This document shows, in pieces, positions 2,844-64,000 of a DNA stretch of 64,000 nt. The position numbers were made by a program, and so were the translations under genes. The stretch's first letter is position 1, and each line of letters opens with the position of its first letter. This DNA is from a virus. The notes beneath the pieces were generated by a model that was given only the letters and a program-made list of their open reading frames with translations, was not told where the DNA came from and did not search any database. Location of the stretch: the IMG/VR virus record IMGVR_UViG_3300020579_000012, positions 4,946-68,945 of that record. The stretch is one strand, 5' to 3'.

Positions 2844-3131
2844 CTACTTTTCGAGAACCGCCAGGATTGCCCCTTCGATCAAGATCACATACTCCTGACC
2901 TTCGATCTTCACGTCTCCAATAAACTGCTCCGAGAAAAGGACCGTGTCCCCCTTCTTCACGCGAGGCTCAATCAGACGACCGGACTGAAACGCGCCTGGG
3001 CCGACGCCTTCCACGATACCACGATTCACCTTCTCCCGAGCCGCGTCAGGAATCAGAATGCCGCCGGGCGTCTTTTCGTCAGCCTTGAGTCTGCGGACAA
3101 CAATGTGGTCTGCCGTCGGGTTGATCTTCAT
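2844..3131 (-). CDS. groES: co-chaperonin GroES (Cpn10)
   Basis: Trimmed to ATG 3129-3131 (GGAGGA upstream). 95 aa: MKINPTADHIVVRRL..GGILIPDAAREKVNRGIVEGVGPG..GDTVLFSEQ..EYVILIEGAILAVLEK. Confidence 0.85.
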   Translation of the reverse strand: MKINPTADHIVVRRLKADEKTPGGILIPDAAREKVNRGIVEGVGPGAFQSGRLIEPRVKKGDTVLFSEQFIGDVKIEGQEYVILIEGAILAVLEK

Positions 3132-4945: not shown

Positions 4946-5119
4946 CTATCGCTTTCCGACCTTACTCTTCATGATTGAACCGAGAAGTTTCAGAGTTTCT
5001 TCAATTGTTGTTCGAACGGCTTCCTTCGACACGACGCGATCCTCATCGGTATCGTCGCACGTCCTGCTCTCAGTCCAGCTAACGATGAATCCACCATCTG
5101 CTGGTGAGACTCGAATCAT
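4946..5119 (-). CDS. hypothetical protein (57 aa; start uncertain)
   Basis: Trimmed to MIRVSPADGGF..; the upstream part of the track ORF overlaps the preceding gene. Confidence 0.4.
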   Translation of the reverse strand: MIRVSPADGGFIVSWTESRTCDDTDEDRVVSKEAVRTTIEETLKLLGSIMKSKVGKR

Positions 5120-5823: not shown

Positions 5824-6264
5824 TTACAGCCCGTCGTCCCAGACGCCACCCCACCGATCGCGACGATGACGTAGTTGAGCCTTGGTTATGCCTCTCCCTT
5901 TCTCGAGGAGCGTAACAGTTCCATGGGCCGGGATGCGAACGACCGCTGACGGCCATCCGGCCGTGAAGATCTCAAGACCGTCATCCATCGTCCGAACACC
6001 AAGCGCCAGGAGATCGATCGTCGACCCAATCGGACTCGTCTGCCGGAAGCTGTCACCGGCCTGGATTCTGTTTGGATGGTAATCCATCGGCAGGTAGCAC
6101 TCGCAGCTATTGATGGCGCATGAGCACTTCGCACGATCCTCGTACTCCCTCTGCGCCTTGATCTGGTCCGACAGGCGTAGGGCGGTCTCCTTACGCTTCG
6201 GCTCCTCCTGGAGGACATCCCGAACGAACGTCTCAAGATCTTCGTCGGTGATGAATCTGCTCAT
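5824..6264 (-). CDS. hypothetical protein (146 aa)
   Basis: GGGAGGGG SD before the ATG; ..CSCAINSCECY.. Confidence 0.6.
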   Translation of the reverse strand: MSRFITDEDLETFVRDVLQEEPKRKETALRLSDQIKAQREYEDRAKCSCAINSCECYLPMDYHPNRIQAGDSFRQTSPIGSTIDLLALGVRTMDDGLEIFTAGWPSAVVRIPAHGTVTLLEKGRGITKAQLRHRRDRWGGVWDDGL

Positions 6265-6277
6265 ATCCCCTCCCTAG

Positions 6278-6502
6278 CTACTTCCGGATCAGCAGGTAGA
6301 CGTCCCACTCGGCGCCAGCGCCGCCCTGTTCGCCGCCACAGCACATGGCGTCGGCCGCGATCCCGATGATCTCGCCACCGATCTTTCCGGCCTGGATCAG
6401 CGCGTTCGCCTTCGCCTCCTCGGCGCTCGCATGCGAGGTGCCGACCGCGACATCGTAGGTCCAGCGAGGCCACCAGAGCAGTTTCCTGAGCCACCAGAAC
6501 AT
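6278..6502 (-). CDS. hypothetical protein (74 aa)
   Basis: AGGAGG SD; MFWWLRKLLWWPRW.. Trp-rich N-terminus. Confidence 0.55.
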   Translation of the reverse strand: MFWWLRKLLWWPRWTYDVAVGTSHASAEEAKANALIQAGKIGGEIIGIAADAMCCGGEQGGAGAEWDVYLLIRK

Positions 6503-6514
6503 AGAGCCTCCTAT

Positions 6515-6919
6515 TTATAAATTACAGCAAAGATTCTTGCAGTCCGGCGGAGAGAATTCTCCGGTCGGCTTTCCGCGCGAAACCTCGACGTCGGTCCAAC
6601 GATGGAAAACTCGACATTCCGTGATGAGCCAGTGCTTGTGCTTATCGAGACCAATCCTCTTCCCGCACTCTAAGCAGACCGTCGATCCCGGAACACCCTG
6701 CTTGAAATAATGCCGTTCGCCTTTCTCAAGATGCTTTCTACATGGGTGACACTGATTCATCGTCTGTGGAACGTGCTCGGCAATGCGACCGGCTGCCTCC
6801 TCGCACCATGGGCATAGAAATGTTTCGATAGGACTCCAGGTGTGGTGTTTCCCGACGCACTCCACCATCGCGTAGGTGCCGTTCGTCTCGACGTAAAAGT
6901 CCCCGAGCTTGAATCTCAT
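6515..6919 (-). CDS. Cys/His-rich zinc-binding protein (134 aa)
   Basis: Several CxxC/CxxxH pairs (CPWCEE, CHPCRKH, CLECGK). Confidence 0.6.
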   Translation of the reverse strand: MRFKLGDFYVETNGTYAMVECVGKHHTWSPIETFLCPWCEEAAGRIAEHVPQTMNQCHPCRKHLEKGERHYFKQGVPGSTVCLECGKRIGLDKHKHWLITECRVFHRWTDVEVSRGKPTGEFSPPDCKNLCCNL

Positions 6920-7541: not shown

Positions 7542-7882
7542 CGGTTCCTCCTCTCGATTCCTCGCCGGACGCGCTTCGCCTCGCGCTCGGCGCCGCGCTC
7601 CGTGTAAGGGCCAGTAATCTTTGTCGCCTCGAGATGCTTATCGAGGACAATCACGGAGAAGTAGCGAGGCTCCTTAAAGCGACAGGAACCATGCTTCCGC
7701 TCATCGTGCGGACAGACCAGCGGAACGACGACGACCGCGGCCGACTTGATCGCGGCCCGCATAAGCGGATCCCGGCGTTTCGTCTTCTGGAAACAACTAC
7801 GACATATCGGACCGAGCTTCTCGTTCTCAACGAGCAGAAGACACTCGCAGGAAAAGCAATAGGACTCCTCGACTTTTTTCAT
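7538..7882 (-). CDS. Cys-rich protein (114 aa)
   Basis: Trimmed to ATG 7880-7882 (ATGA overlap with the integrase stop); CFSCEC..CRSCF. Confidence 0.55.
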   Translation of the reverse strand: MKKVEESYCFSCECLLLVENEKLGPICRSCFQKTKRRDPLMRAAIKSAAVVVVPLVCPHDERKHGSCRFKEPRYFSVIVLDKHLEATKITGPYTERGAEREAKRVRRGIERRNR

Positions 7883-8664
7883 CTCCGAAGCTTCTCGAAA
7901 GTGTTTACGACCTTCTCTTCCCTTGTATGAACGTAGATCTTCGCCAACTCGATCGAAGACCAACGAAGTTGAGACCTAACGTAGTTAAAGTCAGCTCCAG
8001 CAGCGATTAGCCTACTGGCACGGGTATGTCGAAGGATATGGATCAGACCAAATCGGTCTGGCTTTACGATATCTAAAATCCTTTCGAAGATGCTCTGAAG
8101 CGTCCTCTTTGGAATCTTAAAAAGTAGATCATTCGGACCAAACTGCTTCACCCATGTACGCAACTCGTTCGTAAAATCGCTCTTATTGTCAAGATCGACT
8201 GGTAGAAGAGGGTGCCCTGACTTCTTAAGAGTTGGAATCCAAAGGCTCGAAAATGGACCTTTCTTCCAGTCGACGTATTTCGTACGCATTAGCAATGCTT
8301 CGCCACAGCGGCATCCAGTTTCAAGGATAAATCTGATCGTAATTCCAGCCGGATTCTCAATCTTCTTTGTTTCAGCAAGAACCTCCTTGTACTCCTCGTC
8401 GCTAAGATATTTAGTTGAGTCGATTACCGCGTTCGACGACGAAAGAGTTGAGCCCTTCGAATACTTCGATCTACAGCAACCTTCTAAGCATGTGATGAAC
8501 TTGTCACGACGCCCAGCAGACTTCATTATTTTCTGTTTACAGACGTGATTTGGTGATGTGCAGACCTTCGCTCGATCTCCGATATTGTACCGGGCCATGA
8601 ATGATTTCCCACAAATGAAGCAGGTCGAAGGAATCCGGTACTCTGACTTTTCCTTTTTTTTCAT
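7879..8664 (-). CDS. tyrosine recombinase / phage integrase family, with an N-terminal Cys-rich region
   Basis: TGCRCGEALLMR (Arg box), HILRHTRAS (HxxR), LRWSSIELAKIYVHT (catalytic Tyr). Confidence 0.85.
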   Translation of the reverse strand: MKKKEKSEYRIPSTCFICGKSFMARYNIGDRAKVCTSPNHVCKQKIMKSAGRRDKFITCLEGCCRSKYSKGSTLSSSNAVIDSTKYLSDEEYKEVLAETKKIENPAGITIRFILETGCRCGEALLMRTKYVDWKKGPFSSLWIPTLKKSGHPLLPVDLDNKSDFTNELRTWVKQFGPNDLLFKIPKRTLQSIFERILDIVKPDRFGLIHILRHTRASRLIAAGADFNYVRSQLRWSSIELAKIYVHTREEKVVNTFEKLRR

Positions 8665-9314
8665 TTTTTGTGCTCTCGAACGTAGAAGCCGTAATCCTGT
8701 CGCTTCCCGTCGATGTAGGCAAGCTTTGCACAGGCAAGATTGACACAGTAGTTAAAGGAGACTTGATCTCGCTTCGATCCTGACGAAATCTCATCCCACC
8801 AGAGCTCGTTGAAGCGTCGGACCGTATCGTTGTGCCTCCGGATTAGGATATTCGTCTCTCCTAAACCTGCCGCTGCTGGGTATCCGGCCTTTCTTAGTTT
8901 TGTCAAATGATTGACCATCACCAACGGATCTTCCTTCCCTGCGAGAACCGCCGCATTGCCGCCGATATAAACGCAGTCGATTGTCTGGTGACGAAAGAGC
9001 GCAATGTCGTTGTCCGATGTGTACTTCTCAACGAGCGCGCGCAGATCTACGTCGACAGCGTCGATCGCACCGTCTATCCAAACAACGAGTCGATAGTCTT
9101 GTACTGGACTGGCGTGGGACATGACCTTATATAGCCTCGCGTTGCGCGTCAAATCCTTGAGTACAGTCGGAAGGATAACCACCTTCGCCCGGCTCGGCAC
9201 CCTCTTTGGGTAGGAATCCGTAAGAAAAAATACGTCGATATCTTCCCCGAATTCCGGCTCGACGTACGGATCATAATCTCCAAAAATCCCAGTGTACACG
9301 GCAATTTTTTCCAT
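8661..9314 (-). CDS. DUF616-type glycosyltransferase-like protein
   Basis: IAVYTGIFGDYD..VFFLTD..VVWIDGAI..SKRDQVSFNY matches the DUF616 layout as I remember it. Confidence 0.7.
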   Translation of the reverse strand: MEKIAVYTGIFGDYDPYVEPEFGEDIDVFFLTDSYPKRVPSRAKVVILPTVLKDLTRNARLYKVMSHASPVQDYRLVVWIDGAIDAVDVDLRALVEKYTSDNDIALFRHQTIDCVYIGGNAAVLAGKEDPLVMVNHLTKLRKAGYPAAAGLGETNILIRRHNDTVRRFNELWWDEISSGSKRDQVSFNYCVNLACAKLAYIDGKRQDYGFYVREHKK

Positions 9315-9316
9315 GA

Positions 9317-9865
9317 TTATCGCGGCGGTAAAGGGTTGATCTTCGAAAGAGATTCGTACGACAGCAACTCACCGGCACGTCGACGCGCTTTCAAAAGCAC
9401 GCCCGGCATATTTGGAACATCCTGATCGAGCGTCAGGATCTCCATGTCAACGAAGATCTCACGGAAATGATCCAGCGTGAATCGCCAGTGGTCCTCCGGA
9501 TACGGGTGATACGGGAACCCAGGCGAACGGGTTGTGACGATTAGGAGGCCACCAACCTTCACGACGGCCTTCATCTGGTCTGTAGCCCTTTGCCAAGACT
9601 TGACGTGTTCAAGCATCTCCGTCGAGATGACAACGTCAAACTTTTCCATCCCAAACTCCTGGACGAGCCAGTCGACGCTCACGACCCGGTCGACGCACGG
9701 ACCCATCTGAAAGTCGATGCCCATGTACGAGGCTGGTTTCAACGGCTCAAGGACTTCTCGTGGAGTCCCGTTGACGTTGTAGCTGCCGACCTCCAGGACG
9801 CTCTTGCCGGAGATCTCGTCAGACTTGATCGAACGCTTCAAAAAGTCGATAACCGACGGATGCAT
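9317..9865 (-). CDS. class I SAM-dependent methyltransferase
   Basis: VLEVGSYNVNG (motif I-like) and FDVVISTEMLEHV. Confidence 0.8.
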   Translation of the reverse strand: MHPSVIDFLKRSIKSDEISGKSVLEVGSYNVNGTPREVLEPLKPASYMGIDFQMGPCVDRVVSVDWLVQEFGMEKFDVVISTEMLEHVKSWQRATDQMKAVVKVGGLLIVTTRSPGFPYHPYPEDHWRFTLDHFREIFVDMEILTLDQDVPNMPGVLLKARRRAGELLSYESLSKINPLPPR

Positions 9866-15846: not shown

Positions 15847-16556
15847 TTGCTATTCTCAAGAGCTAGTTTTACGAGAGTTTCAACGGTGAATTTATCGTCG
15901 ACAGCCCCGTAGTACAGGTCTTTCGGAATAACCTCCTCGCGGGTCAGACATGAGCTCTCTGTAGTCGAAAACTGCCAGCCAGGGTAGTCCTCGACACCGT
16001 AGACCTTGTTGTCGATCCGGCGCCAGTCCCGGCCGAAGAGGGCATCGTGCCGGACCCAGAAGAAGGTCCCGGCCCAGCACCAGCCGCCGCGAAACGGCAT
16101 GTCCGTCGGAAGGTGCGTCCAACGAAGGCAGCCGACCGTCCCGAAGCGTTCGAGGCGCCGATCGATCACACCAGGGAATAGCAGGTTTGCACGGTACAGA
16201 AGCTCCGTCCAGCGCCGGACCGGCTCACGGAAGAAATCGTTCTTCGTAACGCCCTTTGCGTGCGCATAGAAAGTCGCCTCGTCCGACCGCCTGGACTCAA
16301 GCATCCCGAGTCCCTCAAGGAAGTACGCAGTCTCGGCGAGTGCAGGATTATTCCGGCGGACCAGGATCTCGGCTTCGAGCGGCGAAAGCTTGTCGCGAAG
16401 CTCGGCCTCCGGAGCGGTCCGGTCGTCGAGCGCCAGGATGACAATCCGGCGACCGTTCCAGACGTGCCGGTACTCGCGCAGGCGATCGACGTGCCAGGGC
16501 CAAAGCGTCCCACGAATCGGATAGCAGTGGAATAGGAGGTTACGGGTCATCGTCAT
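15843..16556 (-). CDS. hypothetical protein (237 aa), first gene of the second sugar-transferase cluster
   Basis: Long ORF; I recognise no motif with confidence. Confidence 0.6.
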   Translation of the reverse strand: MTMTRNLLFHCYPIRGTLWPWHVDRLREYRHVWNGRRIVILALDDRTAPEAELRDKLSPLEAEILVRRNNPALAETAYFLEGLGMLESRRSDEATFYAHAKGVTKNDFFREPVRRWTELLYRANLLFPGVIDRRLERFGTVGCLRWTHLPTDMPFRGGWCWAGTFFWVRHDALFGRDWRRIDNKVYGVEDYPGWQFSTTESSCLTREEVIPKDLYYGAVDDKFTVETLVKLALENSK

Positions 16557-60069: not shown

Positions 60070-61197
60070 CTATTTCGTAAGCTTGTGCTTGTAGTATCTC
60101 GCGGACTTTACAACTGCCTTTGTTGCGTGCGCGCCTTCCGGGACTCCGGCAAAGATCCAGTCCCTCTCAGCATCGAGCCGGGTCATCTGCCCGCAGCCTT
60201 CACAGGCGACCTTCGGATCACCGTAGCCTGAGACGGGACCGATCGTTGCAAGCGTCGCCGCCGAAACCTTCTCACGGCTTTTTGGGCAGTAGCCTGCGGT
60301 CTCTAGCTTCGCAGCGGCCCCGGCCCGTTCAGCGCCCGGCGTCTTGTGGTTGCGGAACTTCCAGCTCTGCTTATTAACGCTCGCAACCGCGCCGCAGCTC
60401 GGACACTTCACGTAGACGGTCATTCTGTTGTACAGGCCCTTCAGAAGCGCCTCCGGAACAAACTGTCCGCTCATCGGACATACTCCAGCCGCAGCGGCGA
60501 GCTCGCGCTTCTCCTCCGCGGCGCTCTTTGTTGCTCCAAGGAGGATCCGAAGTTCGTCCTCTGACGGCCGGGTATACAACTTCCCGCCGACCTCAGCCTC
60601 GATGAAGACGAGAGGGTACTGAAAGTACGGCGTGACGTTCGGGATACGGCGAATCACGTACTTGATGTCAACGTCGCCGCGGAAGTAGGCACCTTCCAGG
60701 TAGACCTGTAGGTTCCCACGGAAGTAACCCGCCCTCCAATCGAACTTGATGACGGCATTCTTGAGATCCTGTCTGGCGCCGAGGACGTTGGAGATCTTCC
60801 CAATGTTCTTGTAGACGAAGGAGTTCCTGGCGTTTTCGTAGGATTCGTTGGCTTCTTTATCGGCGTAGTGGTATGTCAGTTTGAAGTTTCCAACAACCGC
60901 GCGCATATCCTCCCAGGTATTAAAGAACCCGTGTGTAGGTCCGATATAGTCTGCGAACGTGTGCCAGTTCGAAAACTGCCTGTGTCCGTATCTGTCTGTC
61001 GGGATCTTTCCTGAGCTTGACTTTACGGTGTCGATGAAGTTCGTGAACGCACCTTTCGCGTGCTCCCGGTACGCCTTAATGAGGTCCTCTCGAATCTTCT
61101 CGCCGATCGAGTTGAAGGCGTCCTCGAACATCCGGATAATCCGGAGCATCGCCGGATTCTTCTCCCACTTCTTCATGCTGACGTCAAGCTTGCCCAT
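60070..61197 (-). CDS. hypothetical protein with C-terminal zinc ribbons (375 aa)
   Basis: Trimmed to ATG 61195-61197 (GAGGAGGAG SD, TAATG overlap); ..KCPSCGA..ACEGCGQ. Confidence 0.65.
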   Translation of the reverse strand: MGKLDVSMKKWEKNPAMLRIIRMFEDAFNSIGEKIREDLIKAYREHAKGAFTNFIDTVKSSSGKIPTDRYGHRQFSNWHTFADYIGPTHGFFNTWEDMRAVVGNFKLTYHYADKEANESYENARNSFVYKNIGKISNVLGARQDLKNAVIKFDWRAGYFRGNLQVYLEGAYFRGDVDIKYVIRRIPNVTPYFQYPLVFIEAEVGGKLYTRPSEDELRILLGATKSAAEEKRELAAAAGVCPMSGQFVPEALLKGLYNRMTVYVKCPSCGAVASVNKQSWKFRNHKTPGAERAGAAAKLETAGYCPKSREKVSAATLATIGPVSGYGDPKVACEGCGQMTRLDAERDWIFAGVPEGAHATKAVVKSARYYKHKLTK

Positions 61198-61556
61198 TAC
61201 TCCTCCTCTGGATCTTTCGGATTCGCGACGGCCCGGAGACCGGTCGACGGCCGAGCTTTGACCTTCGACTTTCCTCTGATCCACTTGACCCGACGCCGTC
61301 CGCCGTCCGTCAGCTCAAACAGATACGGCTTCTTTGCGCCGTCAAGGCGATTCGTCGTCACGAGTCCATTCATAATCGCCCGGTTCAGGATCGTCAGGAC
61401 CGTCCCCCTGTGGACGCCCTCACTGTGCGGTCCCATCCCGCCAAGGATAGAACTGATCGTCACGGGACCAGCAGCCAACTGCAGTAAAACCGACCTGGAG
61501 AGGCCGGTCGGACCGTACGGATTCGGAGTCCCTTTTCTGAGGTTCGGATTTCCCAT
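61197..61556 (-). CDS. winged-helix DNA-binding protein (PadR/MarR-like impression)
   Basis: ..LSRSVLLQLAAGPVTISSILGG..VHRGTVLTILNRAIMNGLVTT..KKPYLFELTDGGRRRV. Confidence 0.5.
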   Translation of the reverse strand: MGNPNLRKGTPNPYGPTGLSRSVLLQLAAGPVTISSILGGMGPHSEGVHRGTVLTILNRAIMNGLVTTNRLDGAKKPYLFELTDGGRRRVKWIRGKSKVKARPSTGLRAVANPKDPEEE

Positions 61557-61920
61557 TCTTGTCTCCCTGAAGGATTGTAGCCTTTCGACGCTGCTGAATC
61601 GACCTTCCTCGAGCGATCATATCCTGGACGTTCTGGAGCTGCGTTCCTGGTTGGATGTGCTCCAGGACGTTGACGCATCGGCGGTTGTCACAGCCGTGCC
61701 GGAGGACCTTTCCGCGCGGCGGCCAGCAACCGAATAGGATCCTGTAGGCGACCTTGTGGGCCCGCTCTACGTGCCCGTTCAGCTTGAAGGCGCCAAAGCC
61801 GCCGTCCCAAGGCTCCTTCCTCCAAGTCCGAACTGACGCCGTCCAGAGCCAGCAACCGGTCTCCGGGCAGATCCGGACCTTCTTCCAGAAACGCTCGCAA
61901 TCTCGCTTCGTCACGTCCAA
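61420..61920 (-). mobile_element. HNH endonuclease gene
   Basis: ..TGCWLWTASV..GGFGAFKLNGHVERAHKVAY..RHGCDNRRCVNVLEHIQPGTQLQNVQD; its 3' end overlaps the next ORF by 137 nt. Confidence 0.75.
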
Positions 61921-62947: not shown

Positions 62948-63262
62948 TCACCGCCGAACCCTCCTTCCCGTCGTAAGAAGCGCCAGTGTCCGACGGCGAA
63001 TCTGCGCTTCGGACTTCCGTCGCTCACGAATCTCTTCGGCGTGCTCCTCGCTGTACTGCCGAAGCTTCTCCTTGGTCTCCTCAGACATCGGAGGCCCTTG
63101 GACACCGAGAAGCTTCCGGACGAGACGACCAGCCGCGTCCTCCTGACCGGACTGCCGAAGCTCGACAACGCGGGCCCAGCCGTCGTACTGGCGGTCCAGG
63201 CCGCGCTTCAATGCCGCGTACAAGTACGGGCACTTCTTTGGGTTGACATCAGATAGTTTCAT
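62948..63262 (-). CDS. hypothetical basic protein (104 aa)
   Basis: ORF track; GGAGGA SD. Confidence 0.5.
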   Translation of the reverse strand: MKLSDVNPKKCPYLYAALKRGLDRQYDGWARVVELRQSGQEDAAGRLVRKLLGVQGPPMSEETKEKLRQYSEEHAEEIRERRKSEAQIRRRTLALLTTGRRVRR

Positions 63263-63281: not shown

Positions 63282-64000
63282 CTACGACTTCACCGCGAAC
63301 GTCGCCACCATGCGCGAATGCCACTCCTCAGCCCATTCCAGCGCGAGCTTGGCAGCGGCATTCTTCTTCGGGGTGTCGCCGGGATTGATGGCCGTGAAGA
63401 ACGCCTCTGCTGGGCGATGGCTGTTTGGTGTCAGTCCAGGGATCTCCGCGTAGTTGCACTTCCTGGCGTTGGCGATGGTACCCACCAGACACGCGCATTC
63501 GCCTTCGTAGGTCGATCCGTTGACTTTGCCATCCTTGAGCGCCTGGATCAGCGCGGGAACCTCAGCCGGGGCCGCCGAAAGGACGGCCCAGAAGTCGTCG
63601 CGGATGGGCGTCAGGTCGGCATCGCGCAGGTCGGCACCGCGCAGGTCGGCACCGCGCAGGTCGGCACCGCGCAGGTCGGCACCGCGCAGGTCGGCATCGC
63701 GCAGGTCGGCATCGCGCAGGAAGGCACCGCGCAGGACGGCACCGCGCAGGTCGGCATCGCGCAGGTCGGCATCGCGCAGGTCGGCATCGCGCAGGACGGC
63801 ACCGGGCAGGACGGCACCGGGCAGGACGGCACCGCGCAGGTCGGCACCGCGCAGGAAGGCACCGCGCAGGTCGGCACCGCGCAGGAAGGCACCGGGCAGG
63901 ACGGCACCGCGCAGGTCGGCACCGCGCAGGTCGGCACCGCGCAGGTCGGCACCGCGCAGGTCGGCACCGCGCAGGTCGGCACCGCGCAGGTCGGCACCGC
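63282..64000 (-). CDS. pentapeptide-repeat protein (N-terminus beyond the right edge) with a ~110-aa non-repeat C-terminal domain
   Basis: I checked the frame (codon starts divisible by 3): it is open from 64000 to the stop at 63282. It reads ..(RGADL)n, [66 protein letters not shown]... The track shows only the last 67 aa and a wrong-frame PTCAV ORF. Confidence 0.8.
63612..64000. repeat. tandem 15-nt repeat, about 26 units, continuing off the window
   Basis: Unit CAGGTCGGCACCGCG with a few variants (GTC/GAC/GAA, ACC/ATC, GCG/GGG). Confidence 0.95.

Follow-up and report, generated by a model that had tools for sequence, protein, structure and literature searches.

A putative phage accessory protein joining a variable pentapeptide-repeat array to a conserved CxC C-terminal domain

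Pentapeptide-repeat proteins are frequent in phages, and a role is known for almost none of them. Among the described members, Qnr, MfpA and AlbG act on gyrase or topoisomerase IV, with Qnr, a helix interrupted by two surface loops, protecting gyrase from quinolones. The DNA mimics Gam and Ocr act on RecBCD or a restriction enzyme. In the nomenclature used for the pentapeptide an invariant alanine (i-2) and leucine (i) face inward and positions i-1, i+1 and i+2 face outward, and the β-helix that such repeats form rises by 4.8 Å per coil. Gp60 of vibriophage 24, a pentapeptide-repeat protein, is reported to counter the Sucellos defence, with point mutations altering this activity (10.1101/2024.07.02.601686). 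Repeat-number variation in surface repeats has been described for region 1 (GGxxP) of pertactin in Bordetella pertussis (PMC4504479). Here we describe a pentapeptide-repeat gene at the end of a 64,000-nt stretch of viral DNA (hereafter the window; positions 4,946 to 68,945 of IMG/VR record IMGVR_UViG_3300020579_000012), which a preliminary description had drawn attention to, and the protein family to which its product belongs.

On the minus strand, window positions 63609-64000 form a 15-nt tandem array of 26 in-frame units plus 2 nt that runs past the window end, in line with the at least 25 units counted earlier. Tandem Repeats Finder, run on the whole window, reported one strong array (63612-64000, period 15, 25.9 copies, 93% matches, score 638), and a window scan for the consensus unit with up to two mismatches gave 24 occurrences, confined to the array, against 0.31 expected by chance. 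A diversity-generating retroelement target was considered and rejected on the template-repeat criterion, there being no second copy of the unit elsewhere in the window. ORF length cannot pick the frame of this array because all six frames are open over it, and the ORF listed at 63611-63997 (minus strand), with its PTCAV repeats, is spurious. The coding frame was settled by its continuation into a conserved domain and by its match to Pfam PF00805 (160.7 bits against a cut-off of 20.2, E = 4.9e-48), as the preliminary description had anticipated in calling the PTCAV ORF mis-framed and the repeats a pentapeptide of the A(D/N)LXX type. In this frame the array encodes (G/D)A(D/V/F)L(R/P) units and leads, stop-free, from the 26 units into a 108-aa non-repetitive tail that is closed by a TAG stop codon at 63282-63284 (minus strand). 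The units comprise twelve GADLR, five DADLR, three GAVLP, three GAFLR, two GAVLR and one DADLT, and the five-residue period is unbroken across all 26. Variation is found at four nucleotide positions of the unit (2, 7, 8 and 14) and not at three, as first thought; these lie in three codons, and 100% of the variation is nonsynonymous. A match to phrog_7713 (E = 4.8e-45), a PHROG without annotated function, spans profile positions 30-89 of 103 only, that is, the last repeats and the start of the C-terminal domain. A non-coding reading, as iterons or a packaging site, was ruled out because the frame runs intact from an ATG via the array into the conserved domain, and the array is genuine coding sequence of a phage pentapeptide-repeat protein. 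With a unit of 15 nt every unit gain or loss stays in frame, and on/off contingency switching by frameshift would not apply to the window array.

The window holds the 3′ 717 nt of the gene (63282-64000, minus strand), and the 5′ end was located at the opposite contig end of the phage, a circularly assembled contig of ~69 kb. Contig ERZ27253773 k141_4216895 (68,831 nt) shares 22 kb with the window at 100% identity, and both its ends lie inside the array. On the C-terminal side (L002) it agrees with the window base for base over 640 nt, which take in the 20 variant-bearing units; at the opposite end (L004, 15826-16037) are a ribosome-binding site (AAGGA/AGGA), an ATG, a 32-aa N-terminal cap, seven GADLR units and the beginning of GAVL. 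The cap, MKFEIKSRWDGSIKFKGEFGSLKLCVLAALKS (L004 15826-15921, outside the window), is of the family-typical MKFEIKxRW type, a hairpin plus helix. The contig ends share an overlap of 25 nt, and L004 and the window close with the same 104 nt, so the genome assembles as a circle broken in the array. A minimal join places the start codon 108 nt past the window end and gives a 275-aa protein consisting of the hairpin-plus-helix cap, 27 pentapeptide units and the 108-aa helical CxC domain; the full ORF that the preliminary description proposed to recover from the contig was in this way reconstructed, with its ribosome-binding site. The same description had allowed for a pseudogene lacking a start codon and for an array produced by misassembly. 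The start codon and cap argue against the former, and the gene is not a pseudogene; the reproduction of 20 variant-bearing units in a second assembly speaks against the latter.

Twenty-seven units is the number given by the minimal join and not a measured one, because every assembly of the window phage breaks inside the array. All these assemblies represent one genotype, and all of them stop in the array even though its perfect GADLR run (105 nt) is shorter than the k of 141 implied by the contig name. No full-length product of the gene was present in a set of 5.8 billion proteins, and exact-pattern scans for the N-terminal junction gave no match in IMG/VR or JGI metagenome contigs. The Logan contig L003 (SRR7100789) differs from the window by one mismatch in 2,557 bases, and this mismatch lies within the array (L003 1-50 against window 63609-63654), where it yields a 15-residue junction absent from the window array. 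A point variant could explain it, as could the loss of six units with a new junction at this place, and it is at most a hint of heterogeneity in the window phage.

In the AlphaFold2 model of the window fragment (71 relatives in the input; pLDDT 83.6, pTM 0.73) a strand recurs each five residues between residues 3 and 128 and is followed by five helices, with a low-confidence dip at residues 37-46, within the array units. A Foldseek search of the PDB with this model gave 54 matches at E ≤ 1e-3, all of them pentapeptide β-helices or designed solenoids derived from them, among which were NP275/276, HetL, Rfr23, MfpA, QnrB1 and AlbG, with best rmsd values of 0.5-0.7 Å over 79-82 columns. On these models the array is predicted to fold as a right-handed quadrilateral β-helix with four units per coil, the fold the preliminary description had expected, and 27 units should give ~6.75 coils with a length of ~32 Å. 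All variable residues of the array units occupy the outward-facing positions i-1, i+1 and i+2. A full-length relative of 190 aa (P0001; model pLDDT 87.8) was predicted to have an N-terminal hairpin and helix, a repeat helix and then a five-helix domain as in the window protein.

The five predicted helices form a conserved C-terminal domain of 108 aa (63285-63608, minus strand; model pLDDT about 87-98). This domain had been described as a unique, Cys-containing one; it is non-repetitive, as stated, but far from unique, being conserved in more than 1,000 protein clusters. A search with it returned 1,056 clusters at 50% identity with E ≤ 1e-3, 788 with E ≤ 1e-10, and located it on 237 confirmed IMG/VR contigs and in 56 species genomes of the Pseudomonadota, Acidobacteriota, Gemmatimonadota, Verrucomicrobiota, Planctomycetota, Bacteroidota, Cyanobacteria and Actinomycetota and of one Paenibacillus. 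The window protein matches relatives with E-values as low as 2.4e-50 and has all the invariants of the domain, namely the D of IRDD, the E of APxEV, GxxxGSxYxGxCxCLVGT, RPxExFF, GDTP and a W. The domain had no Pfam match, either in the window protein or in 28 members scanned singly, no PDB match by sequence or profile and no fold match in the PDB or BFVD with Foldseek. Family members reside mostly in phages and prophages, where the database label is merely ‘pentapeptide repeat-containing protein’; named members are gp49 of Bordetella phage vB_BaM-IFTN6 and prophage proteins of Bordetella bronchiseptica and several Burkholderia species. By these sequence comparisons the window protein is a member of a large family of accessory proteins of phages and prophages that has no name and is defined by the CxC C-terminal domain; it is this domain, and not the helix, that the family conserves. 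The family did not come up in a literature search that covered DNA mimicry, anti-restriction activity and variable repeat number in pentapeptide-repeat proteins of phages; the fold and the generic annotation are already known, and for the C-terminal domain, the family as such and the pattern of array evolution we found no description in the literature.

Array length varies widely across the family. Unit number ranged from 0-2 (P0038, P0004 and P0010) to 57 (L078), with 0-13 units in the short members and 8-57 at the viral loci; the median was 18.5 over 90 distinct complete arrays, and since 18% of these have at least 27 units the window gene is long but not exceptional. Two loci that are 100% identical in upstream region, cap and C-terminal domain have arrays of 31 and 25 units, a clean difference of one six-unit block (L074 and L075); another pair, 99.7% identical, has 16 and 19 units (L048 and L064), and the three prophages of a single genome have 32, 9 and 10. 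Such differences among relatives bear out the recent expansion suggested earlier, slippage or unequal recombination altering the number of units. The relative nearest to the window gene (L006) has 84-85% nucleotide identity to it in each of the two flanking domains but an array of two units, and since its surroundings show no relation to the window, the gene moves from one phage background to another. In the same relative (L006 368-793, encoding P0004) the C-terminus is in an alternative frame from about residue 116, a frameshift or sequencing error. A 66.9-kb related phage (L007) carries two paralogs, at 6001-6573 and 8764-9381, of 10 and 13 units, and the identical DNA unit type in both suggests exchange between the copies; its sister contig (L008, 8764-9018) ends inside the second array.

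Within genes the DNA units had a median pairwise identity of 0.87 (mean 0.903 in the window array), and the 110 arrays compared had 86 different commonest units, so that units are homogenised within genes and divergent between them, a pattern of concerted evolution. What differences persist between units are almost all amino-acid changes at the outward-facing positions, the inward Ala and Leu being kept. Between units, pN/pS was 3.5, 4.5 and 5.0 at i-1, i+1 and i+2 against 0.44 at the Leu, and minimum synonymous/nonsynonymous events at the three positions were 13/181, 21/166 and 13/175 against neutral synonymous fractions of 0.12, 0.21 and 0.30 (p = 0.007, 4e-4 and 9e-15), values which pool related units and arrays under a minimum-change model that ignores mutation bias and are suggestive rather than a formal test. 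In 105 of the 110 arrays pN/pS exceeded 1. The number of units modulo 4 shows no preference (p = 0.92), and the rotational relation of the two end domains is therefore unconstrained.

The gene following the repeat gene (62948-63262, minus strand, 104 aa) starts 19 nt after its stop codon, preceded by a GGAGGA ribosome-binding site, and with no terminator between them the two look like one operon. The repeat gene is one of a long series of small genes with the same orientation. A sigma-70-type promoter was not found in its vicinity, and upstream there is a single terminator-like hairpin, a number that chance alone accounts for. The neighbours of the repeat gene in the window are uninformative and include weak helix-turn-helix matches and an HNH endonuclease (61420-61920, minus strand; PF13392, 25.0 bits against a cut-off of 24.8), which is among the small early genes downstream. 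Also on the minus strand, at 60070-61284, is a 404-aa ORF with the Cys pairs CPMSG, CPSCG, CPKS and CEGCG and with no Pfam, PHROG or PADLOC match. The window as a whole is phage-like, with a primase, a helicase, an integrase and many small ORFs, and precomputed Pfam matches on the identical contig mark, all on the minus strand, a Cpn10/GroES-like gene (2844-3131), the tyrosine integrase (7879-8664), a TOD1_MUCI70-type protein (8661-9314) and a methyltransferase (9317-9865). The integrase suggests a temperate lifestyle.

Among relatives a cI-type HTH-S24 repressor lies upstream at 18 loci, and genes downstream on the strand of the family gene encode RecT (19 loci), YqaJ exonuclease (15), SSB (10), DUF3799 (9) and ERF (8). 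In Bordetella phage vB_BaM-IFTN6 the repressor block is followed by a gap of 585 nt, and the family gene is the first to come after it. The position of the gene in relatives is that of the early-left operon of temperate phages, which in lambdoid phages holds host-takeover, anti-restriction and anti-RecBCD genes; the window phage is without the cI-to-recombination-module context common in relatives. At seven loci the family gene has, within a few kb of it, the gene of a DUF7666 protein in which 7-aa units, GAATASG(D/H)(S/Y), are repeated in long tandem (for instance L016 1607-2626 and L015 5781-6965), a second repeat-rich protein of that phage region.

Our preferred reading, to which we give a probability of roughly 0.6, is that the gene encodes an early cytoplasmic accessory protein in which a constant C-terminal module is joined to a β-helix evolving fast in an arms race, and which is not a gyrase protector of the Qnr/MfpA type. 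Judging from the family, replication slippage or unequal recombination would add and remove whole 15-nt units, or blocks of them, in frame, also in the window gene, and this turnover would keep the units of one gene near-identical while genes diverge. The unit differences that persist would be amino-acid changes at the three outward-facing positions, with the inward Ala and Leu retained. The protein, expressed early, may bind a macromolecule of the host or of a rival phage. The conserved C-terminal domain would be its unvarying part, an effector or a module for oligomerisation, and the β-helix a surface or spacer that can be extended and that diversifies in the arms race; the role would most plausibly be counter-defence or host takeover. 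Rapid change in length, homogenisation within genes and exposed positions enriched in amino-acid changes are hallmarks of arms-race proteins.

A gyrase- or defence-directed DNA mimic had been the suggestion of the preliminary description, and we regard it as unlikely for this protein. The β-helix would imitate B-form DNA and block gyrase or topoisomerase IV, RecBCD or a restriction enzyme, and the predicted fold is indeed shared with MfpA, QnrB1 and AlbG. The array of the window protein, however, has a net charge of only -2 over 135 residues (-0.07 per unit) in a protein with a pI of 7.6, and eight of its units expose Val or Phe in place of the Asp of the commonest unit. The protein scores 36.8 bits with the Qnr model (NCBIfam NF033086), for which 240 is needed, and 73.6 with that of MfpA (NF000349), for which 360 is needed. 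A length ranging from 0 to 57 units without modulo-4 preference is also ill-fitting for a mimic of fixed size, and members with 0-2 units cannot form a helix and yet retain the C-terminal domain. The idea retains some weight because the arrays of relatives are mildly acidic (median charge -0.25 per unit, minimum -0.93) and because in many temperate relatives the gene sits just upstream of RecT/ERF, exonuclease and SSB genes, which would suit a Gam-like inhibitor; the RecBCD inhibitors of lambda and P22 sit upstream of recombination genes likewise.

The temperate setting of the relatives, where the gene follows a cI-type repressor on the same strand, together with the integrase of the window phage, would also suit a factor that the lysogen expresses, in the manner of rexAB or sieB, to defend itself against other phages or to exclude superinfecting ones. 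Diversifying surface residues would fit a sensor in such a system, and the three prophages of one genome each have their own variant. Against this, PADLOC returned no match for the gene, there is no recognisable effector domain, the 585-nt gap between gene and repressor block in the Bordetella phage suggests that the gene heads the early operon, and the window gene stands within a long run of small early-type genes; we think a role of this kind improbable, to about the degree that DNA mimicry is. We hold it for more improbable still that the repeat instability is neutral and tolerated, or in part an artefact of assembly, with the entire function in the two end domains, N- and C-terminal, and the length of the array of no consequence. 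That every assembly of the window phage ends in the array, that contig ends cut the gene at many other loci (21 of 77 viral and 10 of 56 genome loci), that members with 0-2 units exist and that unit counts show no modulo-4 preference would all be expected on such grounds. The order of 20 variant-bearing units is nevertheless identical in two assemblies, the perfect run of 105 nt is below k = 141, and Ala and Leu are conserved with a nonsynonymous excess at the outward positions in 105 of the 110 arrays, which points to selection on a folded, exposed surface.

Beyond the arms-race accessory protein that we favour, a more far-reaching reading is that the family is a phage ‘contingency’ module, in which the length and surface of the β-helix are reshuffled within populations, through units gained or lost in frame, under diversifying selection and, fused to a new CxC effector domain, escape or block host immunity. 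This we put forward tentatively and consider rather doubtful, if less so than the alternatives weighed above. Were it true, the family would represent a previously unrecognised class of hypervariable counter-defence protein, and one that is under-represented in metagenome assemblies because its arrays break them. Contig ends fall inside the gene at 27% of the viral loci examined, far more frequently than a gene of ~0.8 kb should suffer, and with all six frames open the partial arrays left at contig ends are mis-annotated in the wrong frame or on the wrong strand, so that family genes are systematically truncated or mis-annotated. In automatic gene calls on the window phage the array's N-terminal portion is put on the other strand, at 15885-16037 of L004 and at 15885-16256 (locus coordinates) of a 69,060-nt JGI contig (3300050821). 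The family supplies concrete candidates for counter-defence and host-takeover screens.

Among described proteins, gp49 of vB_BaM-IFTN6 (UOK17382.1, ‘pentapeptide repeat family protein’, 249 aa) and the Bordetella and Burkholderia prophage proteins come closest, with a three-part architecture like that of the window protein. The C-terminal domain of gp49 is 70% identical to that of the window protein, and its array, in a temperate phage, is homogenised in the same manner (15-nt period, 19.9 copies, 89% matches); it differs in having ~22 units against at least 26 in the window, a DNA unit of the GGTGCCAACCTGAGC type and a surface richer in Asn, Ser and Tyr. With MfpA, Qnr and AlbG the window protein has in common PF00805 repeats and, by prediction, the right-handed quadrilateral β-helix. 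It probably lacks the loops of Qnr, scores far below the family cut-offs of Qnr and MfpA, and has a 108-aa helical CxC domain where MfpA, Qnr and AlbG have a single dimerisation helix; its near-neutral array, the highly variable copy number of its family and its place in a phage early operon set it further apart from these three. The DNA-mimic proteins MfpA, Ocr, ArdA and Gam present a strongly electronegative, DNA-sized surface, in contrast to the near-neutral array of the window protein, although some relatives approach it more closely in charge. Vibriophage 24 gp60 is, like the window protein, a pentapeptide-repeat protein of a phage and serves as a functional precedent only. Pertactin and the contingency loci share with the family the in-frame gain and loss of short coding repeats, a β-helical protein and selective pressure, with the difference that pertactin is a bacterial surface antigen and the window protein a cytoplasmic phage protein whose 15-nt unit alters length and never switches the gene off.
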